DNA of 64,000 nucleotides from a virus (taxonomy: Duplodnaviria; Heunggongvirae; Uroviricota; Caudoviricetes): the IMG/VR virus record IMGVR_UViG_3300012007_000007, positions 99,434 to 163,433 of that record; one strand, given 5' to 3'. The notes under the pieces were generated by a model. The model ran no database searches and was not told the DNA's origin. It saw only the letters and a program-made list of their open reading frames with translations. Both the position numbers and the translations under genes were made by a program. Of the stretch, positions 5,258 to 56,670 are shown piece by piece (positions within the stretch are counted from its first letter, which is position 1; each line of letters opens with the position of its first letter).

Positions 5258-5614
5258 ATGGCACAGAACAACGAAATTTCCACCCTCGCAAAGGTCACCA
5301 TCGGACGCTACGATGTCTCCGAGGGGAGCAGCGGCCGCTTCTGCATTGAAGTGGAGTTCCCCGGCGAACCTTCCCTCGTCGTGACCGAGGAAGACCCCGT
5401 GGCTTCCCTGGAATCCCCGGACGATACCTTCGTCACCCCCGACCTCTGCGACGAGGTGTACGACGTCCTGGAAAAGTCCGGGCTGGCAACCTACCTGGGC
5501 GGGGAATACTGCGACCCGAACCAGAACGGGGGCTTCTCGTGTGCGGTGTACCGGGTGAAGGCGGGAGAGGGCACTTTCATCGTCCGCACGGACTACGGCG
5601 TAACCGCCGAATAG
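5258..5614 (+). CDS. hypothetical early protein (118 aa)
   Basis: ATG after aaaATGGAGGcaaatact. Confidence 0.6.
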   Translation: MAQNNEISTLAKVTIGRYDVSEGSSGRFCIEVEFPGEPSLVVTEEDPVASLESPDDTFVTPDLCDEVYDVLEKSGLATYLGGEYCDPNQNGGFSCAVYRVKAGEGTFIVRTDYGVTAE

Positions 5615-5630
5615 CCATTCGGCAACTCCA

Positions 5631-5668
5631 GGGCCTCCCGGGAAATCCCGGGAGGCTTTCTGTTTCCG
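5631..5668 (+). terminator. intrinsic terminator
   Basis: GGCCTCCCGGGAAATCCCGGGAGGC + tttctgtttcc. Confidence 0.55.
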
Positions 5669-5696
5669 GCCCGGGTTCTTTCGGGAGTTCCCGGTG

Positions 5697-5745
5697 TCTA
5701 TCGGGGCGGGGATGGGTTGTCCGGGAATACCGGGCATCCTTCATT
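5697..5745 (+). promoter_or_regulatory. class-I element
   Basis: TCTATCGGGgcgGGGATGGGTTGTCCGGGAATACCGGGCATCC. Confidence 0.5.
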
Positions 5746-5773
5746 GTATAACTGCGAACCATAGGAGGACATT

Positions 5774-6343
5774 ATGCAAGAATTCCGTGTAACTGCTACC
5801 ATTGACACCCGCAGGGCGACCGGAGACCGCACCACACAAATTCTCGGTGTCGTAGTCACGCTCGACTACCCGCAATCCGGCCACCACTTGACCGTCCATC
5901 TTTCCGGGGTGAGGCTGGAGAATTTCCACGCCTGCAACCCCTCGGTGAAGCTTCCGCCCGACATCATCTTTGAAGGCGAAGGCATACACGAGGCCATCTG
6001 CACTGCCATTCTGGAAGAGGTGGTGAAGGCTGCCAATTGGAGCATCCCGGAGGTTGACGTGGTGAACGAGGCACGTGCCCGCATGAAGGGGCTGATTGAC
6101 TTCCTTGCCGCCAACGGTCAGAGCCTCGGCTTTGACGATGACAGCGACACGCTGTTCATCGCCCCGAAGGGACTGCAATGGGATAACCAGGGTAAGGGCG
6201 GAAATGATTTAATCCCGGTAACGGCTGAGGAACTGGAATACCGTTCTGAACACTGCGACATCTGCTCGGAAAAGATTTGCTTCTGCCGTCCGAATGACGG
6301 GAGCGAATTCCTTGAGAAGAACGGCCTCCGCAAGGCAAGATAA
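5774..6343 (+). CDS. hypothetical early protein (189 aa)
   Basis: ORF track; ATAGGAGGACATT RBS. Confidence 0.6.
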   Translation: MQEFRVTATIDTRRATGDRTTQILGVVVTLDYPQSGHHLTVHLSGVRLENFHACNPSVKLPPDIIFEGEGIHEAICTAILEEVVKAANWSIPEVDVVNEARARMKGLIDFLAANGQSLGFDDDSDTLFIAPKGLQWDNQGKGGNDLIPVTAEELEYRSEHCDICSEKICFCRPNDGSEFLEKNGLRKAR

Positions 6344-6365
6344 TCTTTAACCCTCCCCACGGAGA

Positions 6366-6400
6366 CTCCCGGGAAACTCCCGGGGGTCTTTCTTTTTTCC
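6366..6400 (+). terminator. intrinsic terminator
   Basis: CTCCCGGGAAACTCCCGGGGG + tctttcttttttcc. Confidence 0.55.
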
Positions 6401-6461
6401 TCCCGGACTGTACCTGCCGACTCTGAAGCTTCTGGCGGCCGCCCGCGGGAACCTCCCGGTG

Positions 6462-6510
6462 TCTAACGGGTTACGGATGGGATGCCCGGGTTTCCCGGGA
6501 GTGGACCATA
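6462..6510 (+). promoter_or_regulatory. class-I element
   Basis: TCTAACGGGttacGGATGGGATGCCCGGGTTTCCCGGGAG. Confidence 0.55.
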
Positions 6511-6552
6511 TGCGAAGCAGGAATTCAACTTGAACCTATGGAGGATTGAACT

Positions 6553-7014
6553 ATGAGTATGGGATATGGTGCTAACTTTGCCGAAGTGGTAACTAAGGAA
6601 AGTCTGGCGAAGGTTATTGGCGACCGTGGCTGCCGCAGGGTAAACGCTTTCATTAAGGCGTTCAAGAACTATGAACTGGATGAAGGCGAATACGGCTGTC
6701 GGGATGAGCTGTGCGATGCCATTATGGGTATTGGCTGTACTCCGGCAGGTATTGACACTGACCGGAAGGAGTTTAAGGCACTGAAGGCAAAGTGGGATGC
6801 TATCGCCACGAAGTTTAAGGAAGCGACAAAGATTGCCCTCTGGTGCAACTGGCATTCCATTGATGAGGATGGCGACCGATACGATGAGGTGGACGGACTC
6901 TACTTTGATGTCGGCCTGAAGTCCATCTGGCAGCCAACGAAGGCTTACCGGGAGGCGATGGCAAAGTTCGGAAAGAACTTCATCACTCGTAAGTTTTTCG
7001 TAACATTTGGCTAA
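6553..7014 (+). CDS. hypothetical early protein (153 aa)
   Basis: ORF track; cTATGGAGGattgaact leader. Confidence 0.6.
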   Translation: MSMGYGANFAEVVTKESLAKVIGDRGCRRVNAFIKAFKNYELDEGEYGCRDELCDAIMGIGCTPAGIDTDRKEFKALKAKWDAIATKFKEATKIALWCNWHSIDEDGDRYDEVDGLYFDVGLKSIWQPTKAYREAMAKFGKNFITRKFFVTFG

Positions 7015-7023
7015 AAAAGTAAG

Positions 7024-7062
7024 GAAATCCCTCCCGCTACCCTCCGGGAGGGATTTTTTGTA
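7024..7062 (+). terminator. intrinsic terminator
   Basis: AATCCCTCCCGCTACCCTCCGGGAGGGATT + ttttgtat. Confidence 0.55.
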
Positions 7063-7099
7063 TAAACTGCGGAAAACAACCAGGAACATAGGTTACGAT

Positions 7100-7666
7100 A
7101 TGATGGGCGACATTATCCAGTTCCCGAACGCATACCAGGGGAACAACCAATACGCAATGCAGAAACGGCAGGAACTTGCCTGGCTGAGGGAACGCCTGGA
7201 CAACATCAAGCAGAAGCTGGCAATGGCGAATATTTCCGGGACAAGGGATGACATCTACGACCTGGAACTCCAGGCCCGCAACCTCCTGCGACGCAGGCGA
7301 TTTCTGCTGGGCGGGGGAGACCCTGCGGACAATTCCGTCCAGGAAGATAACCATTACCCGGACGAGCTCGTCATGCTGGACGATATGCTTGAGCTGAAGA
7401 TGGAGGAATACGAGGAATGCGAGGGGGACGAGAATACCAACCCCGAGAAGGCGAGGATTGGCCGGGAATACGAGGAGATTGACGGCCTCAAGAGCTCAAT
7501 GAAGAAGGCTTGGTTTGCGGACGAGGAGTTTTCCGATGCCGACCTTGACAAATACTACAAGCTCCTGGCGAAGTACGTCGTACCTCCCGGGTTCAATAAC
7601 GGGAACAGCGAAGGCCTCACCAACGAAGAATTCATCGCCAAGTACGGCAAGGACCTCCAGGACTAG
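7100..7666 (+). CDS. hypothetical acidic protein (188 aa), no class-I element of its own
   Basis: first ATG after terminator (residue 32 of ORF 7007..7666); weak RBS AGGTTACGAT. Confidence 0.5.
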   Translation: MMGDIIQFPNAYQGNNQYAMQKRQELAWLRERLDNIKQKLAMANISGTRDDIYDLELQARNLLRRRRFLLGGGDPADNSVQEDNHYPDELVMLDDMLELKMEEYEECEGDENTNPEKARIGREYEEIDGLKSSMKKAWFADEEFSDADLDKYYKLLAKYVVPPGFNNGNSEGLTNEEFIAKYGKDLQD

Positions 7667-7674
7667 CCCGGCTC

Positions 7675-7735
7675 TCTAACGGGTTACGGATGGCTTCCCC
7701 GGGATTTCCCGGGGATTTCCCATATATTGGGCGAG
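7675..7735 (+). promoter_or_regulatory. class-I element (variant with duplicated palindrome)
   Basis: TCTAACGGGttacGGATGGCTTCCCCGGGATTTCCCGGGGATTTCCCATATATT. Confidence 0.5.
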
Positions 7736-7792
7736 GGCTTTCCCAGGGCCCTACCGGGGGTTTCCCGGGAAACCGTAATATGGAGGTTAGAT

Positions 7793-8113
7793 ATGTTCGT
7801 TCTTATGTTCTCGAGTTCCGACCCGAACGAGATTGACTGCCAGCGGCCGAGCGTAATCGCCCACGGGGATACCGTGGATGACCTCATCCAGGCACTGACC
7901 GACGAGGTGGCGTCCGAGGCCTGCATCCACGACGGTGCGAAGCTGTACGCCTGGGGCTACAGTGCCGGGGACGAGATTGACGCGAATGACATCGCTGGGC
8001 TCTGCGACGCGGTGTCCGAGGGAGTCACCCACATCACACTGAAGATTCCCGAAGGCCCGTTCAACGCGGAATACTGCAACAACTGGGCCATTGACGAGAT
8101 TGACCTGGACTAG
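7793..8113 (+). CDS. hypothetical early protein (106 aa)
   Basis: ATG after aATATGGAGGttagat. Confidence 0.6.
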   Translation: MFVLMFSSSDPNEIDCQRPSVIAHGDTVDDLIQALTDEVASEACIHDGAKLYAWGYSAGDEIDANDIAGLCDAVSEGVTHITLKIPEGPFNAEYCNNWAIDEIDLD

Positions 8114-8261
8114 GCAAGACTTCTGCATAGCAACCTCCTAACACCTCCCGTAGCGATACGGGAGGTTCGTCGTATGGAGGAGGATTTTTTATTATATTTC
8201 CTGAAGCTTCCCCGCCGAGCAGTTCAGGAATTCCCCGGAGGCTTCCCGGTGTCTAACGGGA

Positions 8262-8300
8262 CGGGGATGGGATGCCCGGGAACTCCACGAGATAACCACC
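8262..8300 (+). promoter_or_regulatory. class-I element (palindrome half lost)
   Basis: TCTAACGGGacgGGGATGGGATGCCCGGGAACTCCACG. Confidence 0.5.
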
Positions 8301-8334
8301 TGACAGACAACGGATAATTAACCGAGGAGGCAAA

Positions 8335-8715
8335 ATGATTACCATTCCCAAGAACACATTACCGCAGGAACTCGCAGAGAAGGATTCCCGTTGCGATGAA
8401 AAGGTTGTCCAGCGTATCGTGGACGCATTCCTGCATGGCGGTGCGTGGAAGACTTTCCACCCGTTTTCCGACGGCCCGTACCGCAGGGTGAACAACTTTG
8501 TCGCCAAGGACTACTTCTGGGATGACTCGGACGACGGAAAGTGCGTGAAGTTCACCAACACAGAACTCGACCGTGCGGTAGAACTGCTGAAGGATGCGGG
8601 CTACTTCTTCTACCGCAAGTATGAATACGGCACTTGGCTCGCCTACTTCTGCTCCCCGCGTCCCTCGTGCGAGAACGCAGTGAGGGTGGACATCGTGGAG
8701 CACTTCAACCCGTAA
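8335..8715 (+). CDS. hypothetical early protein (126 aa)
   Basis: ORF track; GAGGAGG RBS. Confidence 0.6.
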   Translation: MITIPKNTLPQELAEKDSRCDEKVVQRIVDAFLHGGAWKTFHPFSDGPYRRVNNFVAKDYFWDDSDDGKCVKFTNTELDRAVELLKDAGYFFYRKYEYGTWLAYFCSPRPSCENAVRVDIVEHFNP

Positions 8716-8760
8716 CCCAACTACCTGTCCACCGTATCCCGCATCCCACCGCCCGTTATG

Positions 8761-8808
8761 TCTAACGGGCTACGGATGGGATGCCCGGGAGAACCGGGAA
8801 TCCTTCAT
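8761..8808 (+). promoter_or_regulatory. class-I element
   Basis: TCTAACGGGctacGGATGGGATGCCCGGGAGAACCGGGAATCC. Confidence 0.55.
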
Positions 8809-8895
8809 TGATACTATGCAACAAAAAATGTAGATTTACGCTATAAACCGTCATATAGCGAGACCATCAAAAGAACCTTTAATCGGAGAACAGAT

Positions 8896-9912
8896 ATGCC
8901 CAACGCAAACCTCAACAAGGCCAAGGCCGCCAAGAACGATGAATTTTATACCGTAATCGCGGACATTGAACGCGAAATGAACGCCTACTACGACCGCGAC
9001 CCGGATGTTTTCCGTGGCAAGACCATCCTCTGCCCGTGCGACGACCCGACTTGGAGCAACTTCACCAAGCACTTTACGCAGAACTTCGTCCGCTACGGCC
9101 TGAAGAAGCTCATCTGCACCGGCTACCACAAGGGCGGCAAGGGCATGAAGTATGTCCTTGAAGGCGACACGGACGGCAACGGCAAGGTCGAAGCAGCCGA
9201 CATCGTTGCTACCGAAATGGAAGGTGACGGCGATTTCCGTAGCGAGGAAGTCCAGGAACTGCTCGGAGAAGTGGACTTCATCATCACGAATCCCCCCTTC
9301 TCGCTCTTCCGCGAATTTATCGCTTGGATTATGGAACACGGGAAAAAGTTTGCAATTATCGGAACACAGAACGCCGTTTCTTGTTCCGAAGTGTTCAGTC
9401 TCATTAAGAGCAACCAAGTGTGGCTCGGTGCTACCGGGAACAACACCGACATGGTGTTCCGCGTTCCCGAAGGTGCCGAAATCAAGCCTTCCGACCGTGC
9501 CAAGGCAGAACGCCTGGGCTACAAGGGCAGCTATACCCGTCTCGGGAACAGCTGCTGGTTTACCAACATCGAACACGGCAAGCGTCATGAGTTCCTTGAC
9601 CTCTGCACCAAGGCACAGCTGAAGAAGCGCGGGGTGGAGTTCCCGAAGTATGACAACTACAGGGCCATCGAAGTGTCCAAGGGGGCATACATCCCCAAGG
9701 ACTACAAGGGGGTGATGGGCGTGCCCGTCACATGGCTGGACAAGTATAACCCGGAGCAGTTTGAAATTGTGGGCCTTGACGAAGCCCACGGCACCGGGAA
9801 CTCCAACGGGTTGTGGACGGGCGGCAACAAGAAGGCAACCATCAATGGAGAAGAAAAGTACGCCCGCCTCTTCATCAGGCACAAGCCCGCCACCGAAGAG
9901 GCCGACGCATAG
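8896..9912 (+). CDS. DNA N6-adenine (amino) methyltransferase, NPPF motif IV (338 aa)
   Basis: VDFIITNPPFSLFREF catalytic motif; paralog of CDS 12150..13115 (about 55-60% identity over the N-terminal 60 aa). Confidence 0.75.
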   Translation: MPNANLNKAKAAKNDEFYTVIADIEREMNAYYDRDPDVFRGKTILCPCDDPTWSNFTKHFTQNFVRYGLKKLICTGYHKGGKGMKYVLEGDTDGNGKVEAADIVATEMEGDGDFRSEEVQELLGEVDFIITNPPFSLFREFIAWIMEHGKKFAIIGTQNAVSCSEVFSLIKSNQVWLGATGNNTDMVFRVPEGAEIKPSDRAKAERLGYKGSYTRLGNSCWFTNIEHGKRHEFLDLCTKAQLKKRGVEFPKYDNYRAIEVSKGAYIPKDYKGVMGVPVTWLDKYNPEQFEIVGLDEAHGTGNSNGLWTGGNKKATINGEEKYARLFIRHKPATEEADA

Positions 9913-9986
9913 GAATCACGGAAAATTTTCTTAATTTTCCAAAACTATCACATAGAAGGACTATCAAACGGAAAGGAGACCCGACG

Positions 9987-11237
9987 ATGGAACCGACAAA
10001 ACTTTTTGAAATTTTTGAAGAAGTGGCCCACGCAGAACAGCGCCCGGGCGAAATGGTGTCCCGCTACGCCACAGTCAAAATCCGCGACCTCGTGGACGGG
10101 GCCATCTTCGATGCAGCCGAAAACAAGGGCCTCTATGCCCTTGACGGCCACATCATCGTTCAACCCAAATATCAGCGTTTCTACATCTACGGGGACGGCA
10201 AGCGCGATGTCAAGGTCATTGACTCCATCCTCAAGGGCCTCCCCATCGGCATGATTAGCCTCTATCTCCCCGGCGACCTCGCCCGTGACGGCAAGCCGAT
10301 GGCCGAAGTTTTGGATGGTCAACAGCGCCTCACCACAATCATCCGCTTCTGCACGGAGAAGTTCTCCGTGGATATTGACGGCAATCCGTTCAATTTCTAC
10401 GCCCTCCCGGAAGAAATCAAGGCCAAGATTCTTGACACGGAAATCCCGGTGAGCATCTGCGCCGGGGGCGAAAAGATGCGTAACGATTGGTTCAAGACCA
10501 TCAATATGCAGGGTGTCGCCCTCACGGACATGGAAATCCTCAACTGCGTCTATTCCGGCGAACAGGTGGAAGCCCTCAAGGAAAAGTTCTCCCATGTCAC
10601 CCCTTACCTTTCCAATGTTGCCCTGCAATACATCAAGGGCGACCCGATGCGCCAGGAAATCGAGGAAACCGCTATCAAGATGGTCTGCCCCGATGTGGAA
10701 GCCTACCTTGCCGAACACCGCCACGATGCCGATGTCTCCAAGGTGGAAGCCAAGTTCCACGCCGTCATTGACTGGGTGGACAGCATCTTCCCGGAATACT
10801 ACAAGGAAATGAAGGGATTGGAATGGGGTCGCCTCTATGACGAATACCACGAAAAATTCTTCAATTCCGAAGAATTGGGAAAGATTGTGGCCGACCTCAT
10901 GGCGGACGAGCATGTGACCGCCAAGAAGGGCGCATTTGAATACGCCTTGCAGAAGGCATCCGGGGCTGACCCCGACCTCTCCCTGCTCCATATCCGTCTG
11001 TTCGAGGAATCAACCAAGCGCACGGTATTCTCCCGCCAGACCCAAGAAGCCAAGGAAAAGGGCGAATCCAACTGCCCGATGTGCGTATTGGAGAACGGTG
11101 CTAACCGTGCCAAGCTCTACGGCATCAAGGAAATGGATGCCGACCACGCCTCCGCATGGTCGAAGGGTGGCGCTACGGACATTTCCAATTGCGTGATGCT
11201 TTGTGCCCATCACAACCGAATGAAGGGAAACCGCTAA
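9987..11237 (+). CDS. DUF262 (ParB-like nuclease N-domain) + C-terminal HNH endonuclease, GmrSD-like architecture (416 aa)
   Basis: DGQQRLTT motif; C-terminal CPMC...DHASAWSKGG...NCVMLCAHHN HNH motif; AAAGGAGA RBS. Confidence 0.7.
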   Translation: MEPTKLFEIFEEVAHAEQRPGEMVSRYATVKIRDLVDGAIFDAAENKGLYALDGHIIVQPKYQRFYIYGDGKRDVKVIDSILKGLPIGMISLYLPGDLARDGKPMAEVLDGQQRLTTIIRFCTEKFSVDIDGNPFNFYALPEEIKAKILDTEIPVSICAGGEKMRNDWFKTINMQGVALTDMEILNCVYSGEQVEALKEKFSHVTPYLSNVALQYIKGDPMRQEIEETAIKMVCPDVEAYLAEHRHDADVSKVEAKFHAVIDWVDSIFPEYYKEMKGLEWGRLYDEYHEKFFNSEELGKIVADLMADEHVTAKKGAFEYALQKASGADPDLSLLHIRLFEESTKRTVFSRQTQEAKEKGESNCPMCVLENGANRAKLYGIKEMDADHASAWSKGGATDISNCVMLCAHHNRMKGNR

Positions 11238-11285
11238 CATCAAATTGGGCTTCCTCAACAAGTAACAGCCAATGCCTCCACAGAG

Positions 11286-11322
11286 AACCTCCCGGGAAAT
11301 CCCGGGAGGCTTTCGTTTTCCC
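11286..11322 (+). terminator. intrinsic terminator
   Basis: GAACCTCCCGGGAAATCCCGGGAGGC + tttcgttttcc. Confidence 0.55.
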
Positions 11323-11373
11323 CTGAAGCTTCCAGACGACTTCCGACACTGAGCCCGCGGGCATCGCCCGTCC

Positions 11374-11420
11374 TCTAACGGGACGGGGATGGGATGCCCG
11401 GGAACTCCCGGGGTTCACCA
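11374..11420 (+). promoter_or_regulatory. class-I element
   Basis: TCTAACGGGacgGGGATGGGATGCCCGGGAACTCCCGGGG. Confidence 0.55.
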
Positions 11421-11451
11421 TCAGTCCAATACGCTTATGGAGGAAAAGACT

Positions 11452-12009
11452 ATGGCACACGAAACTATCCCCACCGATTCCTATGACGAGAAGGGCGAAT
11501 TTGTCATCCTCGACAGTATGGCCAGCCCGGACTACGACCGTATAAAGGAGGACTGCGAGGCCAACGACTGGGACATCCCGGAGGTTGACTCGGAGGAATA
11601 CTGGGAACACTGGCACTGTATTCTGGATAGCGACCTGGAGCTTTTCCGGGATTCCTTCGCAGACCTCGGCCTCGTGGTGATGCGCGGAAAGTCTGGGCTT
11701 TGGTACGGCGACCGCGACTGCGGCAACGTGGCCAGGGTGGAGAACGGCGACCAGTTCCTGGCCATCGCCATGCACGGGGACGGGGTGGACGACTGCCGGG
11801 TCTACTTCACGAAGGAACAGGGGCTTTGTTCCGACGGATACCACCACGACGGGACGAACTCCTACGCCTACCGCCAGCTCACCGAGAAGGGAAAGGAACT
11901 CTATACCGCGTGGGACAACTATGAAATTGAGATGAGTGAACGGGAACTCCACGAGAAGCTGTGGGAACCCGAATACTCCACGAAGATTGACTGGTTCCTC
12001 GACACATAA
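11452..12009 (+). CDS. hypothetical protein (185 aa)
   Basis: ATG after cTTATGGAGGaaaagact. Confidence 0.6.
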   Translation: MAHETIPTDSYDEKGEFVILDSMASPDYDRIKEDCEANDWDIPEVDSEEYWEHWHCILDSDLELFRDSFADLGLVVMRGKSGLWYGDRDCGNVARVENGDQFLAIAMHGDGVDDCRVYFTKEQGLCSDGYHHDGTNSYAYRQLTEKGKELYTAWDNYEIEMSERELHEKLWEPEYSTKIDWFLDT

Positions 12010-12062
12010 ATTTTCCGATTGCCTCCCAGCTCCTCCCGGGAAACCCCCGGGAGGTTGCCTGT

Positions 12063-12095
12063 ATCTAACGGGGCCTGGATGGCTACCCCGGCCCG
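12063..12095 (+). promoter_or_regulatory. class-I element (heavily degenerate)
   Basis: ATCTAACGGGgcctGGATGGCTACCCCGGCCC. Confidence 0.35.
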
Positions 12096-12124
12096 TTGAC
12101 CCGGAAATTATTTTTTATTATAAT
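12096..12124 (+). promoter_or_regulatory. consensus sigma70 promoter (TTGACC-17-TATAAT)
   Basis: -35 TTGACC, exact 17-nt spacer, perfect TATAAT; 26 nt upstream of methyltransferase ATG. Confidence 0.6.
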
Positions 12125-12149
12125 TTTTTCATAAAAAAGGAAACCCCGA

Positions 12150-13115
12150 ATGCCCAACGCAAACCTCAACCGGGCGAAATCAGCCAAGAACGACGAATTC
12201 TACACGCTTCCAGCCGATGTTTCCCTGGAAGTATCGGCATACCTCCGCAGGAACCCCGACCTTTTCCGGGGAAAGTCCGTGCTCTGCCCCTGCGACGACC
12301 CGGACGACAGCGCGTTCGCGAGCCACTTCGCGGAACACCTGGGCGAATACGGGATAACCCGCCTGGTCTGCTCCTGCTACAACCGGGAATCCCACGGGAA
12401 GGTACGGGTCATAGAGAACGGTACTACCGTAGACTCCGAGCTCGAGGGCGACGGGGACTTCCGGGGGGAGGAGGTGGGACGGCTCATCGACGGCGCGGAC
12501 TTCGTGGTGACCAACCCCCCGTTCAGCCTGTTCAGGGACATCGTGGCCGTCCTGACGGCGAAAAATAAATTCTTTTCCCTGATAGGGAACCTCAACGCGA
12601 TAGGGTACAGCGAGATTTTCCCCCTTATAATGGAGAACCGCCTCTGGACGGGGGCCACCCACTTCAACACCGGGATGTACTTCCGCGTTCCCGGGGACTA
12701 CGAGTACGCACCCACCTACAAGTTCGACCGGGAGCGGGACGGCGTGAAGGTGATGCGCGTCCCGGCGACCTGCTGGTTCACCAACATAGACTTCGACTCA
12801 AGGCACGACACCCTGGAGCTCTCCTCCCGGGAAGCCCTGGAGAAGAAGGGGGTGTCGTTCCCGGTATATGACGACTACGACGCGATAGAGGTGTCGAAGG
12901 CGGTCAACATCCCGGGCGACTTCCCGGGGATAATGGGAGTTCCCATATCCTGGCTGGGCAAGTACAACCCGGAACAGTTCGAGATAGTGGGCATAGCCAA
13001 CCACGGCAAGGACAGCGAGTACGACCTGTTCGCCCCGAGCGTCCACGGGGAGACCGTGTACAAGCGGCTGCTCATCAGGCACCGGCATGCGCCCCAGGAT
13101 TCCCCCGTCCTCTAA
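12150..13115 (+). CDS. DNA N6-adenine methyltransferase paralog (321 aa)
   Basis: FVVTNPPFSLFRDI motif; N-terminus near-identical to CDS 8896. Confidence 0.75.
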   Translation: MPNANLNRAKSAKNDEFYTLPADVSLEVSAYLRRNPDLFRGKSVLCPCDDPDDSAFASHFAEHLGEYGITRLVCSCYNRESHGKVRVIENGTTVDSELEGDGDFRGEEVGRLIDGADFVVTNPPFSLFRDIVAVLTAKNKFFSLIGNLNAIGYSEIFPLIMENRLWTGATHFNTGMYFRVPGDYEYAPTYKFDRERDGVKVMRVPATCWFTNIDFDSRHDTLELSSREALEKKGVSFPVYDDYDAIEVSKAVNIPGDFPGIMGVPISWLGKYNPEQFEIVGIANHGKDSEYDLFAPSVHGETVYKRLLIRHRHAPQDSPVL

Positions 13116-13158
13116 CGGGTACGGGATGGGATGCCCGGGAACTCCCGGGGATAACCAC
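13111..13158 (+). promoter_or_regulatory. class-I element
   Basis: TCTAACGGGtacGGGATGGGATGCCCGGGAACTCCCGGGG; overlaps the methyltransferase stop codon. Confidence 0.55.
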
Positions 13159-13184
13159 ACCAATGTAAAAATGGAGGACATTAA

Positions 13185-13403
13185 ATGCTAGCATTTCCCG
13201 AATCCAACCCGAAGCCGGTAATTTCCCGCGACGGGGGGAACGTCCCCTGCCGTCGCCCGGACAAGACGGGTACGAAGCCGCCCTGCATCAACTGCGGCCG
13301 CCCGACCTACCGCTACATCGGGTCCTACCCGGTATGTTCCTACTGCACGAAGCTCGTAAAGCTGGACAGGTACGGCCAGCCGATAAAGGAGGCGAAACAA
13401 TGA
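13185..13403 (+). CDS. zinc-ribbon protein (72 aa)
   Basis: CINCGRPTYRYIGSYPVCSYCTK (4 Cys); aaaATGGAGGacattaa leader. Confidence 0.55.
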   Translation: MLAFPESNPKPVISRDGGNVPCRRPDKTGTKPPCINCGRPTYRYIGSYPVCSYCTKLVKLDRYGQPIKEAKQ

Positions 13404-22537: not shown

Positions 22538-22580
22538 CCCATTGGGGAACCTCCCGGTACCTGCCGGGAGGTTTTTGTTT
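22538..22580 (+). terminator. intrinsic terminator
   Basis: AACCTCCCGGTACCTGCCGGGAGGTT + tttgtttttc. Confidence 0.55.
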
Positions 22581-22800
22581 TTCTCCCGGGAAACCTCCCC
22601 GGAACCTCCCGGGAATTCCCGGGATTTTTTTCTTGTTCCCCCCGGGAACCTCCCACGGAATTCCTGCTTTCCCCCCGGGAACATCTCACGTAATTCCTGC
22701 TTTCCCCCCGGGAATCTCCCACGGAATTCCCGGGGTTTCCACCGGGAAACTCCCGGAAACCTCCCCGGGGCTTCCCGGGAATCCCGCGAAAAAATATTTT
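22560..22800. repeat. GC-rich tandem repeat tract (~38-bp units TTCCCCCCGGGAAnnTCCCACGGAATTCCTGCT, ~3 copies plus CCCGGGAA-type simple repeats)
   Basis: visible direct repetition; no credible ORF. Confidence 0.6.
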
Positions 22801-22988: not shown

Positions 22989-23040
22989 CTCTATCGGGAC
23001 CGGGATGGGATGCCCGGGAGGACCTCCCGGATTCCCCCGG
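22989..23040 (+). promoter_or_regulatory. class-I element followed by a repeat tract instead of a gene
   Basis: CTATCGGGaccGGGATGGGATGCCCGGGAGGACCTCCCGG. Confidence 0.5.
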
Positions 23041-23340
23041 GTTCTCCAGGATGTTCCCGGGTTGCTCCCGGAGGCTCCCAGGTTGCTCCCGGAGCATTCG
23101 GGTTGCCTCCCAGGTTCCCCCAGGTTGCTCCCGGATTCCCCCGGGTTGCTCCCGGAGGCTCCCGGATTCCCCGGGTTGCTCCCGGGTTGCTCCCGGGAGG
23201 TTCCCAGGTTGCCCCCGGGGCATTCGGGTTGCCCGACATCGGGCTCCCCAGGTTCCCCCGGGTTGCTCCCGGGAGGTTCCGGGGAGGTTCCGGGAGTTAT
23301 CCGGGGGGTTCCTGGGAGGTTTCACGGAGTCCCGGGATGT
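23030..23340. repeat. degenerate 12-bp tandem repeat tract (GGTTGCTCCCGG-like, >15 units)
   Basis: read directly; the Pro/Gly-rich ORFs here (22875..23538) are judged spurious. Confidence 0.6.
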
Positions 23341-23420
23341 TCCACGGGAGGTACGGGTGCCGTTTTTCGCGAAATTTCGGGGGTGCCTGCCGGGAAAAGT
23401 GGCGGAAAGTGGGGAATTTT

Positions 23421-23852: not shown

Positions 23853-24488
23853 ATGATGGCGAGGGAATTTGCTTTGGGCGTACTGGTCCTGGCGGGGAGC
23901 GCCGTGTTCGGGGTGGAGCCGGGGCTTCCGGCGGGTTTCGACCTGAGCTGGAGGCCTATGGGAGCCAACACCGGGAAGCTGGTGGAGGACGTGGAGGCGG
24001 TATACGAGGACGGTGATGGCAAGGTGCGCTGCCAGTACATCAGGGGGGTGGACCTCCCGGCGGTCCGGGAGTACGGGGAGTGGGTGTGCCCGGCGGTGAC
24101 GCTGTGGCACATCCGGGAGGTGGACATAGAGCGTTTCGGGGGGAAGTGCGGCGGTCTGCTGTGCATGTACGACTACACGATGCCCGGGGACCTCCCGACC
24201 GCGACCACGGTGAAGCGGGTGGCGTGGTGCCCGGACGTGGTTGTGACCCGTCGGGAGGGGGGCTACCTGCGTATCCGTGGCGGGCTCCGATTCGGACGGG
24301 GTGACAGGCCCGAGCCGTACTACAACAGCGGGGTGATACCTATGAGTTTCCCCCTGGACCCGGAGCTTGCGGAGTGCGGCGGGGAGAACTACCGGGAGCA
24401 GCGGAGGTTCTGGCTGGAGGAGTTCAGCGCGCCGGGGTACGGCGTGAGGGAGGAGGCCGGGGAGACGGACAGCTGGGACGGGACCTAA
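23853..24488 (+). CDS. membrane-anchored protein (211 aa)
   Basis: ATGATG after GGGAGGATAGCCGC; N-terminal hydrophobic helix FALGVLVLAGSAVFG. Confidence 0.5.
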   Translation: MMAREFALGVLVLAGSAVFGVEPGLPAGFDLSWRPMGANTGKLVEDVEAVYEDGDGKVRCQYIRGVDLPAVREYGEWVCPAVTLWHIREVDIERFGGKCGGLLCMYDYTMPGDLPTATTVKRVAWCPDVVVTRREGGYLRIRGGLRFGRGDRPEPYYNSGVIPMSFPLDPELAECGGENYREQRRFWLEEFSAPGYGVREEAGETDSWDGT

Positions 24489-24530
24489 CGGGTCCGGGAT
24501 GGGATGCCCGGGAGGTCCGGGGAATTCCCA
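24483..24530 (+). promoter_or_regulatory. class-I element (last copy)
   Basis: CCTAACGGGtccGGGATGGGATGCCCGGGAGGTCCGGGGAATTCCCA. Confidence 0.55.
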
Positions 24531-24568
24531 GGGGTATGGGCGTGAACAGTAACAAGATGGAGGACATC

Positions 24569-25720
24569 ATGGTCAAGGAGATGGAAAGGCGTTACTTCCG
24601 GGGACTCGGCGGAGACAGCGTGTCCGTCCCCTCCGGGAGCGACCGCGGGGAGCGGATAGAGGGCTTCTTCGCCGAGAACGGTGTCTCCCTCCGCGTGGAC
24701 GGGGTGGAGCGCGGCCCGGTGGTGACGAAGTACGTGGTGTCGCTGGGAAGCGACCGTGACCACGTGGCTAGGGTGGAGAACCTCCGCAGGGACCTGGGCA
24801 TCCGTCTCGGGGTCGGCGCGGGGAGGGTCTACATCGGCGAGACCCCGTGGAAGGGCGGCGTATCGCTGGCGATAGAGGTCCCGAACGCGGAGAGGGCGGG
24901 CGTGCCGGCGGGAGCCGTGATTCCGTCCGTGAGCGGGGACATTGCCAGGGACGGGCTGCGCGTGTGCCTGGGGGTGGACACCTCGGGCCGTCCGTATTCG
25001 GTGGACCTGTCCGTCGCCCCGCACGTGCTGGTCGCGGGCCAGAGCGGGAGCGGGAAGAGCGTGTTCCTGGACAGCCTGATATGCGGCCTCCTGGACAACT
25101 ACGGGCTTGGGGACTGCGAGGTGTCGGTGGTTGACCCGAAGGGCACGGAATTTATTTCGTTTTCCGGGCATCCCGGGGTTGTCCGGTACGGTCTGGGGAT
25201 TCCCGAGGAGGGCGCGGTGGTGAGGTCCGAGGAGGCCGCGGAGCACCTGGAGGCCCTGGTCCGCGTCATGCGTTCCCGCATGGCGGCGTTCGCGGGCGTG
25301 GGTGCGGGGAACATCCGGGAGTACCGGGAGGTGACGGGGTCGGCGATGCCGTACCACGTTGCGGTGGTGGACGAGTTCTACGACCTGCTGGTTAACTACC
25401 CGGAGGCGGAGGGCCCGATGGGCATCCTGGCGGCGAAGGCGAGGAGCGCGGGCATCCACCTGGTGCTCGCCACGCAGCGTCCGTCGGCGGACGTGGTGCG
25501 CGGTGCGCTGAAGGCGAACCTGTCCACTAGGATAGCGCTGAAGGTCGCGTCGAGGACGGACTCCCAGGTCATCCTGGACCGCGGCGGGGCGGAGACCCTG
25601 TGCGGCCGAGGGGACATGCTCTACATGGGCCCGGACGGGGATGCCCCGGTGCGCCTGCACGGGTGCTACGTGAGCAACGCGGACATCAGGGGCTTCGTCG
25701 CGAGCTGCGCGGGCCGGTAA
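24569..25720 (+). CDS. FtsK/SpoIIIE-family P-loop DNA translocase-like ATPase (383 aa)
   Basis: Walker A VAGQSGSGKSVF, Walker B VAVVDEFYDL, LVLATQRPSADVV motif. Confidence 0.7.
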   Translation: MVKEMERRYFRGLGGDSVSVPSGSDRGERIEGFFAENGVSLRVDGVERGPVVTKYVVSLGSDRDHVARVENLRRDLGIRLGVGAGRVYIGETPWKGGVSLAIEVPNAERAGVPAGAVIPSVSGDIARDGLRVCLGVDTSGRPYSVDLSVAPHVLVAGQSGSGKSVFLDSLICGLLDNYGLGDCEVSVVDPKGTEFISFSGHPGVVRYGLGIPEEGAVVRSEEAAEHLEALVRVMRSRMAAFAGVGAGNIREYREVTGSAMPYHVAVVDEFYDLLVNYPEAEGPMGILAAKARSAGIHLVLATQRPSADVVRGALKANLSTRIALKVASRTDSQVILDRGGAETLCGRGDMLYMGPDGDAPVRLHGCYVSNADIRGFVASCAGR

Positions 25721-47622: not shown

Positions 47623-47907
47623 CTATTTCTTGTATATCCGTCGCATCACCAGCAGCCCCGTCGTCAGTATCGTCGCTACCGTGTAGTTGAAGTACAGCGG
47701 CCACTGCCATTCCCCGGTCACGCAGTTGGTGTACAGGACGAAAGCGCAGCTTCCGAGGTTACCTACGTAGGCCAGCGCGAAGAACCCGTACGATAGCCCG
47801 GTATCCTTCTTCTTCCACGCCTTGCGGACCTGAGGGGCCAGGTTGAATGCGAATGCCACCGCACCCGCACCTCCCAGAAGCCAGAACAGAATCCCTACCG
47901 CGTCCAT
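47623..47907 (-). CDS. PQ-loop / SemiSWEET-like small membrane protein (94 aa)
   Basis: 3 TM helices; PQVRKAWKKKDTGLS motif. Confidence 0.4.
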   Translation of the reverse strand: MDAVGILFWLLGGAGAVAFAFNLAPQVRKAWKKKDTGLSYGFFALAYVGNLGSCAFVLYTNCVTGEWQWPLYFNYTVATILTTGLLVMRRIYKK

Positions 47908-49154
47908 CAGCCCGCCTTGATTTCCCCCACGAGTTTATCGAACCACTCCCGCGTCATCTGCCGCCTGTCCTTGCGATGGCGGTACACGGCCAGCCGGAGC
48001 TTTCTGAGCGTATGTCCAAACTCCTTGCCCTGCTTCACGCCGGCATCGAGCAACGCCCTCGTCATGTCCTTCATTGTGGGCCACTCGGTCGCGTGCTCCC
48101 GCAGCTTTATCTCGTCCGTCCGAGAAATTACCAGGTAGCCCTGTCTCGAGAACACGTAGGCCCTGAACAGTTCCCATCGGTCGTCGGTAACCAGGTCGAC
48201 AAGGTCTACAAGGTCGAGCGTACCGGCGAGGTACTTCTTGAATCTTTCGGTAATATACTCGACGTTCCTCGCGTCCTCCCTGGTGCACTTCAGGGCCTGC
48301 ATCGAGTACTTGTCCGGGAGTATCAGCGGGAACAGGTATTCGGGCTTCCACTGCACGTCACTACCCAATGTCGCGCACGCCGTAGCCAATCTTGCAATGC
48401 ACTGTCTGGCAAAGTCCCAGTCGATATTCAGGCCAGTTCCCTTCCCGATGTCCCATGACGCCATCCAGCCGAGCATCGCGGCGACCTGCTGCACTCCGTA
48501 CTCGGCACACTTGGCAAGCTCGTCGTGAATCCTTTCCTTCGATATGTTGGCCAGCCTCGGCGCAAGCACCCTCGCGGCATTCAGCGTGGCAACATCTATC
48601 TTCATGCCGAAACGAGCGGCGAACCGGCACATCCTCACTATCCTTAGCGCGTCCTCGGTGAACCGCTCGGTAGCATCGCCGACGGTCCGCAGGTGGTTCT
48701 TCGTAATTGATTCAACGCCGCCGTGGTAGTCGACCACACGGTAATCGCCGTCCAGTCCCATTGCATTGGCGGTGAAGTCCCTTCTCGCCGAATCCTCCTC
48801 AAAGCTCCCGGCCCACTCTACGCTATCCGGGTGCCGTCCGTCGGTATAGTCCCCGTCCTTCCTGAACTGGGTCACCTCGAACATCGTGTCCTTCCACTCG
48901 ACCAGCACGGTACCGTGCGCCTCGCCGTTGTTGCTCTCGCACCTGAACGCCTTCTTCAGCTCCTCGATTGGCATGTTGGTCGCTATGTCCACGTCGTGTA
49001 TGCCGGGATGCTTCTCCAGCCCCAGCTCCCAGCGGACAAGGTCCCTCACGCAGCCCCCGGCAAGGAGTGCGTCATATCCGTGTTTACCAATCTCCCTGAC
49101 TAAACCGAGCCCCTTCTCGACGAGGGGGATGGTCCTTGCGTTCAATATAATCAT
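47907..49154 (-). CDS. tRNA nucleotidyltransferase (CCA-adding enzyme / poly(A) polymerase head + HD domain) (415 aa)
   Basis: GGCVRDLV ... HDVDIAT nucleotidyltransferase motif; C-terminal HD-like LRIVRMCRFAARFG. Confidence 0.7.
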   Translation of the reverse strand: MIILNARTIPLVEKGLGLVREIGKHGYDALLAGGCVRDLVRWELGLEKHPGIHDVDIATNMPIEELKKAFRCESNNGEAHGTVLVEWKDTMFEVTQFRKDGDYTDGRHPDSVEWAGSFEEDSARRDFTANAMGLDGDYRVVDYHGGVESITKNHLRTVGDATERFTEDALRIVRMCRFAARFGMKIDVATLNAARVLAPRLANISKERIHDELAKCAEYGVQQVAAMLGWMASWDIGKGTGLNIDWDFARQCIARLATACATLGSDVQWKPEYLFPLILPDKYSMQALKCTREDARNVEYITERFKKYLAGTLDLVDLVDLVTDDRWELFRAYVFSRQGYLVISRTDEIKLREHATEWPTMKDMTRALLDAGVKQGKEFGHTLRKLRLAVYRHRKDRRQMTREWFDKLVGEIKAG

Positions 49155-52178: not shown

Positions 52179-53024
52179 TCAGGCATCCGGCACCTCCACC
52201 AAGTAAGTTCCCGCTTCCCTGTTCAGCATGAACGCGTTCCTTTCCTCGGGATAGCCGAGCGGGTTGCACACTATCCTGACGCGGTTCCCGGTAGGAGCGG
52301 TGTACACCGTGTCGAACTGGTTGTGCGTGTGGCCACACTGCCATACCGTACCGTCGTCCAGCATGTCGAGGAACCTCTGCGCGTCGAAATAGAACATCGC
52401 CGTCACCGGGTCATCCCGGTACACCTCGGCAACCCCCATCTGCAACGGGCAGAAGTGCGTCATGACTATCCGGGGCCTCGCCTTGCATACAACCTCGAGA
52501 TTCTCCAGCTCCCTCGCCAGGATGTCCGGGAACACCTGGTTCCTGTAGTTCCACAGCCTGCCGTCGAACCACCGGTTGCTCCAGAAGTCGAGCGCGTTGA
52601 ACGGCTCTCCGTTGTCTACGCGGTAGCCCAGGTCGCATACGCCCATCGTTCCTCCGAACAGCCCTGACTCATCGACCTGTCCGTCAAGGATATGGACGTT
52701 GGGGCAGCTTTCCGAGATGCTCTCCCGGACATACTCCATCCTCTCCTCGCTGGTGTCGAACAGCCTTCCCGGGAAATCCCGCTTCACCACCAGGTCATGA
52801 TTGCCGAACACCACGTAGACCTCCCGGTACTTCCGGGAGATGAACCGCAGGAACGAAAGCTGTACCCCCTCGTAGTTGGCGACATCGCCGGCTATGCATA
52901 CCGCGTCGGCAGGGGTGAAGTAGTTGCCGTACAGTGCTTCGAACATAGGGTGGAGAACGGCATCGCTGTCGCTCAGTGCCGAATAGAAATCTACATGTAT
53001 ATCCGAAATGAGGAATACTTTCAT
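52179..53024 (-). CDS. calcineurin-like metallophosphoesterase (281 aa)
   Basis: ISDIHVD, GDVANY, GNHD, GHTH motifs; GGAGG RBS 9 nt upstream. Confidence 0.7.
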   Translation of the reverse strand: MKVFLISDIHVDFYSALSDSDAVLHPMFEALYGNYFTPADAVCIAGDVANYEGVQLSFLRFISRKYREVYVVFGNHDLVVKRDFPGRLFDTSEERMEYVRESISESCPNVHILDGQVDESGLFGGTMGVCDLGYRVDNGEPFNALDFWSNRWFDGRLWNYRNQVFPDILARELENLEVVCKARPRIVMTHFCPLQMGVAEVYRDDPVTAMFYFDAQRFLDMLDDGTVWQCGHTHNQFDTVYTAPTGNRVRIVCNPLGYPEERNAFMLNREAGTYLVEVPDA

Positions 53025-53060
53025 GGATGCGCCTCCGGGAACATTGCTTGCCCCAGGATG

Positions 53061-53076
53061 CAAATATAGCATTTTT
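53061..53076 (-). promoter_or_regulatory. class-III motif
   Basis: AAAAATGCTATATTTG ~40 nt upstream of ATG 53024. Confidence 0.45.
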
Positions 53077-54852: not shown

Positions 54853-54946
54853 TTGTTACTCCGATGTATTGAAGTTGATAGATTTCATTTTTCAGCAGCA
54901 CGTTGGGTTAACATACCCAAACAATATCTATTCCGGATGCGTGTAG

Positions 54947-55029
54947 CGGAAGGCGAGGGACTCGAACCCCCAAGCGTTTTACCGCGGCGGATTTCAAGTC
55001 CGCTGACTTACCAGTTAGCCTAGCCTTCC
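54947..55029 (-). tRNA. tRNA-Ser (anticodon UGA), long variable arm
   Basis: hand-folded cloverleaf; acceptor GGAAGGC/GCCTTCC; anticodon loop CTTGAAA; T-loop GGTTCGAGTCC. Confidence 0.65.
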
Positions 55030-55036
55030 TGTTTCC

Positions 55037-55225
55037 CTAGTAGTGGGCGTGCGAAGAGAGAAGTTCAGCCTTCTCCCTCTCCATGCGCTCCCTCTGCCGG
55101 GCAAGCTTCTTGATGTCTATTCCGCAGGACTTGGCCATGCTCCTGGCCTTCTTCTGCTGCTTGGCCCAGCGGGCCTGCTTCTGCTCCTCGGTTTCCTCCG
55201 GGAGCTCTTCCCTGTGCTTCTTCAT
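55037..55225 (-). CDS. small Lys/Glu-rich protein (62 aa)
   Basis: ORF track. Confidence 0.4.
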   Translation of the reverse strand: MKKHREELPEETEEQKQARWAKQQKKARSMAKSCGIDIKKLARQRERMEREKAELLSSHAHY

Positions 55226-55233
55226 ATGTCCCC

Positions 55234-55701
55234 CTAGTCGTTCACCCCGACGACCACAATCTCGTCTTCGGTAAAATACTCGTTAAGTTTGTCCCTGTTG
55301 GCCTGCATAGTGTTCCACATGCGCTCGACCACGTCAATAGGAACCTTGCGCTCCCTGCCTTCCATTCTCCGCATGGCGACCTCGGGCGGAATGTCGAACC
55401 AGTAGGCCCTGGACATTGAGCCGGCCGGGCAAAGGCCCAGGTAGGTCCTCCAGTCCCTCACGTGGATATTGGTGGCGTCGCACACCACGTCGCCGCGCAG
55501 CATGCCCTCCGATACCCTAGAACGGAATATGGCGAATACCTTGGAATCCAGCTCCGGGTAGAGGTATTCCTCCGTACCGGTCAGTTCCTTCCGGATTCCA
55601 TCGGACGACACTACGGTAGCCCCGGTAGATTCCGCGAGCTTCCTCCCGTACGTAGACTTGCCGCACCCGGGAATGCCTATGAGAAGATGCAGAGTATTCA
55701 T
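55234..55701 (-). CDS. polynucleotide 5'-kinase (T4 Pnk kinase-domain-like P-loop kinase) (155 aa)
   Basis: GIPGCGKST Walker A; RKVPIDVVERMWNTM closely resembles T4 Pnk KAVPIDVLRSMYKSM. Confidence 0.65.
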   Translation of the reverse strand: MNTLHLLIGIPGCGKSTYGRKLAESTGATVVSSDGIRKELTGTEEYLYPELDSKVFAIFRSRVSEGMLRGDVVCDATNIHVRDWRTYLGLCPAGSMSRAYWFDIPPEVAMRRMEGRERKVPIDVVERMWNTMQANRDKLNEYFTEDEIVVVGVND

Positions 55702-55719
55702 CTGATTGTTCCTTTTTAG

Positions 55720-55792
55720 TAGTCCTACCCGGATTCGAACCGGAGTTACCGGAATGAGAATCCGGCGTCCTGGGCCTCTAGACGATAGGACC
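55720..55792 (-). tRNA. tRNA-Glu (anticodon CUC)
   Basis: hand-folded; strong similarity to bacterial tRNA-Glu backbone; loop TTCTCAT. Confidence 0.6.
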
Positions 55793-55807
55793 GTGTGTTA
55801 AATTTAG

Positions 55808-55881
55808 CTCCGGTGGACAGACTCGAACTGCCGAATCTCCTGATTACAAATCAGGCGCTCTACCAACTGAGCTACACCGGA
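55808..55881 (-). tRNA. tRNA-Thr (anticodon UGU)
   Basis: hand-folded; loop TTTGTAA; T-loop TTCGAGT. Confidence 0.6.
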
Positions 55882-55887
55882 ATGGAA

Positions 55888-55961
55888 TCGGGGTAGCCGG
55901 ATTCGAACCGACGACATCCTGCTCCCAAAGCAGACGCTCTACCAGGCTGAGCTACACCCCG
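55888..55961 (-). tRNA. tRNA-Pro (anticodon UGG)
   Basis: hand-folded; loop TTTGGGA. Confidence 0.6.
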
Positions 55962-55967
55962 GGAACC

Positions 55968-56228
55968 CTAGTCTTCTTCGACTGGTTCCGTCAGCTTGGT
56001 AGCGATTACCTTCGCGTAGTCGGCCACCGTGCGGATACGTTCGAGCTCGGAATCGAGAATCTCAATCTCGAACTCGTCTTCCATCGCCATCACGATTTCC
56101 ACGATGTCGAGAGAGTCCGCGCCGAGGTCGGCAGCGATTTCGGAATCGTCGTCGATGTCGGAAACGTCAAGTTCCAGCTTGGCGGAAATTACGTTCTTCA
56201 CGCGTCCGAGAAGTTCATTGCTTGTCAT
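55968..56228 (-). CDS. acyl carrier protein (86 aa)
   Basis: GADSLDIVEIVMAMEDEF phosphopantetheine-attachment motif; AGGAGA RBS. Confidence 0.65.
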   Translation of the reverse strand: MTSNELLGRVKNVISAKLELDVSDIDDDSEIAADLGADSLDIVEIVMAMEDEFEIEILDSELERIRTVADYAKVIATKLTEPVEED

Positions 56229-56244
56229 ATACTCTCCTTGTAAA

Positions 56245-56541: not shown

Positions 56542-56562
56542 TGTTCATTATCCCCAAATTGC

Positions 56563-56651: not shown

Positions 56652-56670
56652 GGCCACCCCTCCGATGAAA

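Follow-up and report, generated by a model that had tools for sequence, protein, structure and literature searches.

Two independent units around a DUF262/HNH nuclease in a large phage-like element: a mobile, probable restriction-modification cassette and an orphan EcoRI-family methylase

The locus analyzed here occupies positions 8896-13115 of a 64,000-nt stretch of DNA (the window) from the IMG/VR virus record IMGVR_UViG_3300012007_000007. Four plus-strand open reading frames (ORFs) were confirmed there, which encode in order a DNA methyltransferase (MT1), a nuclease with DUF262 and HNH domains, a small acidic protein (ORF3), and a second methyltransferase (MT2) (Table 1). An earlier description made from the letters alone (the original prediction) had treated them as one module, in which two methyltransferases of differing GC content bracket a GmrSD-like nuclease. 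The GC difference is real but modest: 0.557 for MT1 and 0.608 for MT2, with 0.546 for the nuclease gene, 0.575 for ORF3, and 0.58 for the surrounding 24 kb. For the nuclease, the ATG at 9987 is preferred as the start codon, being served by an AAAGGAG ribosome-binding site and called as the start in relatives; a GTG at 9813 was considered and judged less likely. ORF3 starts at 11452, with GGAGG 8 nts upstream, and the alternative ATG at 11389 falls inside an intergenic repeat. Minus-strand ORFs overlapping the four genes are shadows of coding sequence with high GC at the third codon position.

Both methyltransferases belong to the EcoRI_methylase family. The Pfam profile PF13651 (cut-off 26.4 bits) matches each of them over nearly its full length, with E = 2.6e-111 and 372.7 bits for MT1 and E = 3.3e-93 and 313.2 bits for MT2. 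Both carry the motif TNPPFS, in which N132, P133, P134, and F135 are invariant in the family alignment, and the two proteins are 48% identical (E = 1e-116), so that the two paralogous NPPF N6-adenine methyltransferases of the original prediction are borne out. The same holds for the nuclease between them, in which Pfam detects GmrSD_N/DUF262, a ParB-like domain (PF03235; E = 9e-18), and HNH (PF01844; E = 4e-7). Conservation of the HNH residues had been proposed as a check on this gene. Among 19 homologues with identities down to 46%, the zinc ligands C363, C366, C402, and C406 (which form a CxxC...CxxxC zinc-finger pattern), the catalytic residues D386-H387, N401, and H409-N410, and the residues D110, G111, Q112, Q113, and R114 of the DGQQR motif are all invariant. 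Judged by these residues, the nuclease looks active.

Table 1. Genes and intergenic features of the interval and its left border
Feature	Position	Strand	Size or remark
Intergenic repeat copy upstream of MT1 (TCTAACGGG..GGATGGGATGCCCGGGAGAACCGGGA)	8759-8810	+	~50 nts; left recombination boundary in close relatives
Sigma-70-like promoter match TTGATA-17-TAGATT (9/12), MT1 leader	8808-8836	+	-10 inside conserved cassette leader; consensus match only
Mobile cassette, predicted restriction-modification: ~70-nt conserved leader, MT1, 74-nt spacer, nuclease	8826-11237	+	2.4 kb
MT1, EcoRI-family (gamma-class, NPPF) N6-adenine DNA methyltransferase; predicted cognate methylase of the cassette	8896-9912	+	338 aa
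Palindrome GGAAAATT-TTCTT-AATTTTCC in the MT1-nuclease spacer	9920-9940	+	kept in 5 cassette copies
DUF262 (ParB/Srx-like, DGQQR) and Cys4 HNH nuclease; predicted restriction endonuclease of the cassette	9987-11237	+	416 aa
Intrinsic-terminator-like hairpin CCTCCCGGGAAATCCCGGGAGG, then T-rich tail	11288-11309	+	closes the predicted MT1-nuclease transcription unit
Intergenic repeat copy upstream of ORF3	11372-11420	+	right recombination boundary in close relatives
ORF3, acidic protein of unannotated family	11452-12009	+	185 aa; pI 4.26; always adjoins MT2 in close relatives
Hairpin CCTCCCGGGAAACCCCCGGGAGG after ORF3	12032-12054	+	terminator-like stem without T tail
Degenerate intergenic repeat copy (TATCTAACGGGGCCTGGATGGCTACCCCGG)	12062-12091	+	
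Near-consensus sigma-70-like promoter match TTGACC-17-TATAAT (11/12)	12096-12124	+	AT-rich stretch directly upstream of MT2; consensus match only
MT2, divergent orphan EcoRI-family N6-adenine methyltransferase	12150-13115	+	321 aa; NPPF intact

MT1 and the nuclease are encoded by separate, adjacent, and co-oriented genes, as in Type II restriction-modification (R-M) systems, and profile searches give both components. In PADLOC, whose Type II models are derived from REBASE, the nuclease matches REase_II (PDLC03418) over model positions 7-371 of 372 (E = 2.7e-76), and MT1 matches MTase_II (PDLC03297) over its full length (E = 1e-94), a model to which MT2 also gives a match. More than 3,600 homologues of the nuclease were found, and gene linkage was counted in 80 loci from GTDB and 79 from IMG/VR, of which 73 could be assessed in either case. 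Immediately before the nuclease homologue (within 400 nts upstream and on the same strand) stands an EcoRI-family methylase in 61 of the 73 GTDB loci and likewise in 61 of the 73 IMG/VR loci; most of the others carry the methylase 1-3 kb upstream with an inserted gene between, such as one of 283 amino acids in Phocaeicola massiliensis. Overall, approximately 84% of loci have a tightly linked, co-oriented methylase and approximately 95% have one no more than 5 kb away, across many phyla, plasmids, and phages. On bacterial chromosomes, 47%-identical nuclease homologues are paired with an EcoRI-family methylase among housekeeping genes, the two genes overlapping or being separated by a 14-nt gap, and a small divergent HTH_3 gene stands beside some of these pairs. 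The pair is also present on plasmids of Enterococcus faecium, Moraxella, and Rhodococcus. In the window, the gap between MT1 and the nuclease is 74 nts and contains neither a repeat copy nor a terminator. Moreover, the methylase and nuclease trees show matching phage-associated clades, and MT1 clusters with nuclease-linked methylases. Older comparative genomics had described fusions of HNH with ParB-like COG1479/DUF262 domains and their association with R-M loci (PMC3632139). It is probable, on these grounds, that MT1 and the nuclease constitute a two-gene R-M unit of Type II gene organization. Since the nuclease is tightly linked to a methylase, it would be expected to be blocked by the corresponding methylation and not to depend on it, a sensitivity that we infer from gene linkage alone. 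Among the roles originally suggested, a nuclease/methyltransferase pair with self-protection is the only one supported, and it applies to these two genes only.

Rumen and gut metagenomes yielded both close and distant relatives, whose contigs range from 94 to 466 kb. In three of the distant genomes (L001, L012, and L014), blastn aligned the region 8826/8837-11236 at 87-88% nucleotide identity with sharp ends and unalignable flanks: the left edge lies ~60-70 nts upstream of the MT1 start, and the right edge falls exactly at the nuclease stop codon. Beyond this region, one other early-region match was obtained in these three contigs, a segment of ~630 nts in L001 with 69% identity. L178/L184 is ~91% identical to the window in nucleotide sequence and contains MT1, the nuclease, three extra genes, ORF3, and MT2; in L184, the cassette is found on the opposite side of a 126-aa gene relative to the window. 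L185 (a 223-kb contig) and L186 possess ORF3 and MT2 and lack MT1 and the nuclease. Block-wise blastn against L184, L185, and L186 revealed shared blocks whose edges fall on repeat copies (window positions 8250, 8759, and 11372), so that the breakpoints coincide with conserved intergenic motifs. In L012, GATC occurs at 0.4 per kb inside the cassette and 2.8 per kb outside it, which suggests that this copy arrived recently from a GATC-free genome. Because it is present or absent, shifts its position, and has sharp ends with unalignable flanks, the R-M pair is a 2.4-kb mobile cassette. A nucleotide search of 8700-13200 against GenBank phages gave no match.

These comparisons also dissolve the bracketed four-gene module of the original prediction. 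The methylase-nuclease pair occurs with a single methylase, without MT2 and among quite different neighbors, in L001, L012, L014, and L015; ORF3 and MT2 occur without the pair in L185 and L186; and the three extra genes of L178 lie between the nuclease and ORF3. Signals in the window have a corresponding layout, with a repeat and a weak promoter match before MT1, a good intrinsic terminator after the nuclease, and an upstream element of its own for ORF3 and for MT2. The interval thus comprises two independent units within a long array of small co-oriented genes.

In the second unit, genomic context marks MT2 as a lineage-conserved orphan methylase: its transcription unit, as predicted, includes no nuclease, and every close relative examined, cassette-free ones included, retains it along with ORF3. 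Its orthologue in L178 is 95% identical. In a neighbor-joining tree, MT2, this orthologue, and P0125 fall together on a long branch within the clade of phage-associated methylases; the next relatives are an orphan in the phage-like contig L181 (63% identity) and a nuclease-linked methylase in L182 (56% identity). Identity between MT2 and MT1 falls to 17-44% in MT1 segments 71-94, 189-251, and 302-319, and the specificity of MT2 probably differs from that of MT1. According to record titles, the R-M family from which MT2 derives is abundant in rumen bacteria. An anti-restriction module, another of the roles originally proposed, does not describe the four genes together; for MT2 alone, which is retained without the nuclease, an anti-restriction role is a reasonable inference.

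ORF3 precedes MT2 in every close relative. It contains 45 acidic and 16 basic residues, has a confidently predicted fold for which no known relative was found, and has no match in Pfam, PHROG, PADLOC, or NCBIfam (the last of which matched none of the four proteins). Approximately 120 remote homologues of similar size were detected in a library of 1.8 billion proteins, with W84 and H131-H132-D133-G134 invariant, and these homologues are located in similar small-gene arrays on contigs of up to 370 kb. ORF3 showed no similarity to the DNA-mimic anti-restriction proteins ArdA and Ocr in either sequence or fold. From its position and charge, one might guess that it is a candidate anti-defence factor.

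The mobility of the cassette and the divergence of MT2 also admit another explanation, namely, that the cassette acts solely as a selfish addiction module, hitch-hiking in a hyperplastic region without any benefit, and that MT2 is what remains, in decay, of a second such cassette whose nuclease has been lost. Presence/absence polymorphism and position shifts among ~91%-identical genomes would suit this explanation, and so would the long branch of MT2, its substitutions at 14 of the 80 positions at which 20 other members of the family show no variation (including W53D, N55A, W144V, and H227F), and the fact that P0124, a relative of MT2, is still nuclease-linked. However, MT2 keeps NPPF, CPCDD, and most motifs, is 95% conserved, persists in every close relative examined, and has a strong promoter match; besides, usefulness and selfish maintenance can coexist. 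We consider a purely selfish origin improbable.

A second alternative, which follows the original proposal of a phage-borne modification-dependent nuclease, is that the protein is a GmrSD-like Type IV enzyme cutting the modified DNA of competing phages, with the flanking methylases irrelevant to its activity. Its N-terminal DUF262/GmrSD_N domain with DGQQR is of this kind, and one JGI homologue is labelled 'McrA'. The AlphaFold2 model of the nuclease (pLDDT 85) finds its best but weak structural matches in BrxU (a GmrSD-family Type IV enzyme), DndI, ParB/Noc/Srx, Gme-HNH, and McrA, and it agrees with a ParB/Srx-like N-terminal domain joined to HNH while not establishing family membership. The C-terminal part, in contrast, is a PF01844 HNH domain with four Cys residues and not DUF1524 (PF07510): no Pfam match to the latter was obtained at E<0.1, and PF01844 is the sole C-terminal domain. 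GmrSD enzymes stand alone without a cognate methyltransferase, whereas a co-oriented methylase accompanies this family in most loci, the nuclease matches REase_II over its full length, nothing resembling a repeat or terminator separates MT1 from the nuclease, and the cassette travels as methylase plus nuclease. A Type IV enzyme is thus very unlikely here, and of the GmrSD-like architecture only the N-terminal half stands. Very unlikely, too, is a three-component system in which MT1 and MT2 would each serve one strand of an asymmetric site, as in Type IIS systems with two methylases, so that the four genes would be a single module: the two methylases are indeed paralogues within 3 kb on one strand, and two IMG/VR loci (L148 and L149) have two tandem EcoRI-family methylases upstream of the nuclease, but five relatives have the nuclease with a single methylase, two close relatives hold MT2 without the nuclease, three unrelated genes part the units in L178, MT2 lies beyond a terminator and has a promoter match to itself, and a single methylase is the rule in bacterial loci. 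The tandem methylases of L148 and L149 stand directly before the DUF262/HNH gene and represent a two-methylase variant, which in L149 spans 5612-9140 and is followed by a 1720-aa ORF.

Several points weigh against an R-M cassette beside an orphan methylase. Literature searches turned up no published biochemistry for any member of the DUF262/HNH nuclease family and nothing specific on a characterized DUF262/HNH Type II enzyme or an EcoRI-family/DUF262 pair, and the NCBI label is only 'DUF262 domain-containing protein'. The fold likeness of the nuclease to BrxU/GmrSD is weak (Foldseek E = 9e-3, TM 0.2); a Foldseek search of the model against PDB gave weak multi-domain matches, none with E ≤ 0.001, and a sequence search of PDB gave no match. 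A C-protein-like helix-turn-helix (HTH) protein is absent at the window cassette, which says little, since one is detectable in only eight of 72 bacterial loci; an argument that phages had lost the controller was dropped for the same count, which refers to homologues of the HTH protein of L005 and L008. The specificities of MT1 and MT2 are at most likely to differ, and palindrome-avoidance analysis yielded no candidate site for the cassette, the GATC void alone emerging from it. The sigma-70-like promoters are consensus matches only, with three found against 2.1 expected by chance. Finally, the 64-kb window contains no capsid, terminase, or other virion gene, and the element could be giant and plasmid-like, in which case the description below of packaged DNA as already methylated would need rewording.

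Having weighed these points, we consider it probable that the locus combines a mobile R-M cassette (unit 1) with ORF3 and the orphan MT2 (unit 2) in a large uncultivated phage-like element of the rumen or gut. MT1 would methylate the N6 of adenine in a specific site and thereby mark the element's own DNA. The nuclease, presumably co-transcribed with it, would cut copies of the site that lack the mark by means of its beta-beta-alpha-metal HNH site. For the ParB/Srx-like DGQQR domain, the analogy with GmrSD/BrxU (PMC12707154) makes nucleotide binding and gating of the nuclease probable. If the genome is packaged in virions, incoming DNA would already be methylated, and the early cassette could attack the host chromosome and a co-infecting element. 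MT2 would be transcribed by host polymerase from its own host-type promoter, and its most likely role is to methylate the element's DNA in advance, as protection from another member of the same very common R-M family. The attack logic proposed for the cassette is that of other virus-borne R-M systems. A bolder scheme, which we hold to be doubtful, would make the DUF262/HNH enzymes a distinct nucleotide-gated, methylation-sensitive class, the mirror image of GmrSD/BrxU with a shared sensor/NTPase chassis and opposite polarity; in CRISPR-bearing giant rumen phages, the cassette would then be an exchangeable inter-phage weapon moved at promoter-like repeats, and MT2, perhaps with ORF3, a standing immunity against rival variants.

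Orphan adenine methyltransferases, such as Dam of T4 and Dam of P1, are used by viruses against host restriction. MT2 resembles them as a solitary, lineage-conserved N6-adenine methylase of an early region with no adjacent nuclease, but it is EcoRI-like and not Dam-like, and GATC is absent from the genome, so there is no GATC action there. With Type II R-M systems that have HNH endonucleases (PADLOC/REBASE), the cassette shares the methylase-then-nuclease operon, a gamma-class NPPF adenine enzyme of the M.EcoRI family, and a predicted beta-beta-alpha-metal nuclease; it differs in the N-terminal ParB/Srx-like DUF262 domain with its putative nucleoside triphosphate (NTP)-binding DGQQR motif, which is atypical of textbook Type II enzymes. 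Members of the GmrSD/BrxU/SspE family combine DUF262 with DUF1524 and are modification-dependent or phosphorothioate (PT)-sensing (PMC4619093, PMC12707154). The window nuclease is like them in having an N-terminal DUF262 domain with DGQQR and a C-terminal His-Me-finger nuclease, BrxU being its top fold match in PDB, and unlike them in its Cys4 HNH domain, its shorter length, and its methylase linkage; the presence of a cognate methylase would imply that its response to modification is the reverse of theirs. A cultured phage of Flavobacterium, vB_FspS_laban6-1 (NC_048834), has as gp07 and gp08 an EcoRI-family methylase and a DUF262/HNH nuclease (43% identical to the window nuclease) with overlapping genes; this phage is a 43-kb siphovirus, however, in which the pair has a single methylase and adjoins tail genes instead of an early-gene array. 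In the promoter early stem-loop (PeSL) cassettes of T4-type phages, small non-essential genes are likewise flanked by a promoter-like motif and a stem-loop terminator, and the motifs are the breakpoints at which close relatives differ by insertions, deletions, and re-ordering (PMC2839356, Arbiol et al. 2010; PMC4122927). By contrast, the window repeat is unrelated to them, does not fit the sigma-70 consensus, and is lineage-specific, and it is a candidate promoter, judged from its conserved sequence and the terminator-like hairpins.

This repeat of ~50 nts is present in ~35 plus-strand copies between 95 and 24512 (such as those at 8759, 11372, 13109, and 14272) and sits 50-60 nts upstream of the ribosome-binding site of almost every plus-strand gene. 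Its core reads CTAWCGGG-N4-5-GGATGGGATGCCCGGGA-N3-CCGGG..TTCCCA, and a search with a 16-nt core gave 36 matches, of which the one at 46039 is on the minus strand, where chance alone would give 1.4. At the corresponding positions of related genomes stand other repeats, each lineage with its own. An Rfam search at gathering thresholds detected only tRNAs and no family for the repeat, and a structured-RNA reading was rejected in favor of a DNA motif after RNAalifold found no covariation among 29 copies. The repeat resembles a promoter or DNA motif that is specific to its lineage; a single-stranded promoter of a leading region was also considered as a possible role. A third AT-rich sigma-70-like site, at 1790-1830 (TTGACA...TATATT/TATAAAT), follows the repeat copy at 1757; together with the sites before MT1 and MT2, it suggests that a few genes of the array have an extra host-type promoter. 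In addition to the palindrome in the MT1-nuclease spacer, an inverted repeat (GCTATAAACCGTCATATAGC) in the MT1 leader at 8850-8870 is conserved within the cassette, and the two may be control elements replacing a C-protein circuit.

GATC does not occur in the 64 kb, where a Markov model predicts ~190 and base composition ~240 sites. It is likewise missing from L001, L014, L178, L185, L186, and L188, and it is present in L012, L015, and L182, with over-representation in the latter two. Such a void implies that restriction at GATC by some hosts has exerted strong selection. As the tetramer is absent, neither MT1 nor MT2 can be a GATC (Dam-like) methylase on this genome.

Genes elsewhere in the window include 13 tRNAs and those for a CCA-adding enzyme, a kinase, a phosphoesterase, SprT, DUF932, and an FtsK-like ATPase. 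The 13-tRNA cluster (54946-60208, minus strand) is interspersed with an ORF carrying a NUMOD3 motif, and near it, all on the minus strand, are ORFs at 47907-49154, 52179-53072, 55234-55701, and 58267-59025, the neighbors of the tRNAs including the CCA-adding enzyme, an AAA_33 kinase, and a metallophosphoesterase. As a group, these genes resemble a tRNA supply and repair set. At 60664-61571 lies a CRISPR array of 12 identical 36-nt repeats (GGTGTAGTCACCCCTCAAAATGGGGGTGGGTCCACC) and two degenerate ones with spacers of 30-31 nts, and directly beside it a 767-aa ORF with a Cas12f1-like TNB domain (61576-63879, minus strand); the two make up a compact type V system like those described from huge phages. 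Its spacers had no significant match in the window or in any of the fetched loci. Tandem CCCGG-rich arrays with periods of 11, 21, and 33 nts occur at 22546-22754 and 23023-23352, where GC reaches the window maximum (0.63-0.68), just upstream of the FtsK/SpoIIIE-like gene (24374-25720); a similar 11-nt array is found in L001 at 12942-13045. Possible identities of these arrays are iterons, an origin, or a packaging site. S-adenosylmethionine (SAM) lyase is an anti-restriction function of the T3 type. L001, a 466-kb contig binned as a Fibrobacter metagenome-assembled genome, encodes such a lyase (9388-10086) three genes downstream of its R-M cassette, which supports the view of the gene array as an anti-defence or early region. 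No close relative of the lineage was found in IMG/VR, the best identity being 46%. The features of the window favor a very large phage, and the term phage-borne in the original prediction is likely to be right, though not proven for a window with no capsid or terminase gene.

As a combination, a phage-borne R-M system and an orphan methylase is ordinary: the family already has catalogue entries, and the pair is known from a cultured phage. The surrounding genome, with its lack of GATC, a 35-copy repeat, and a CRISPR array beside a Cas12-like gene, is more unusual than the four-gene finding itself. For the annotation of such loci, a DUF262 and HNH protein beside methylases would be corrected to an R-M nuclease rather than a GmrSD-type modification-dependent enzyme. 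Close relatives with and without the cassette provide a natural experiment, and metagenomic methylomes could assign motifs to MT1 and MT2. The DUF262/HNH R-M family is very common, its homologues numbering in the thousands and spanning bacterial phyla, plasmids, and phages. It would make a good target for characterization because it may reveal the coupling between a ParB/Srx NTP-binding domain and a methylation-sensitive HNH nuclease.

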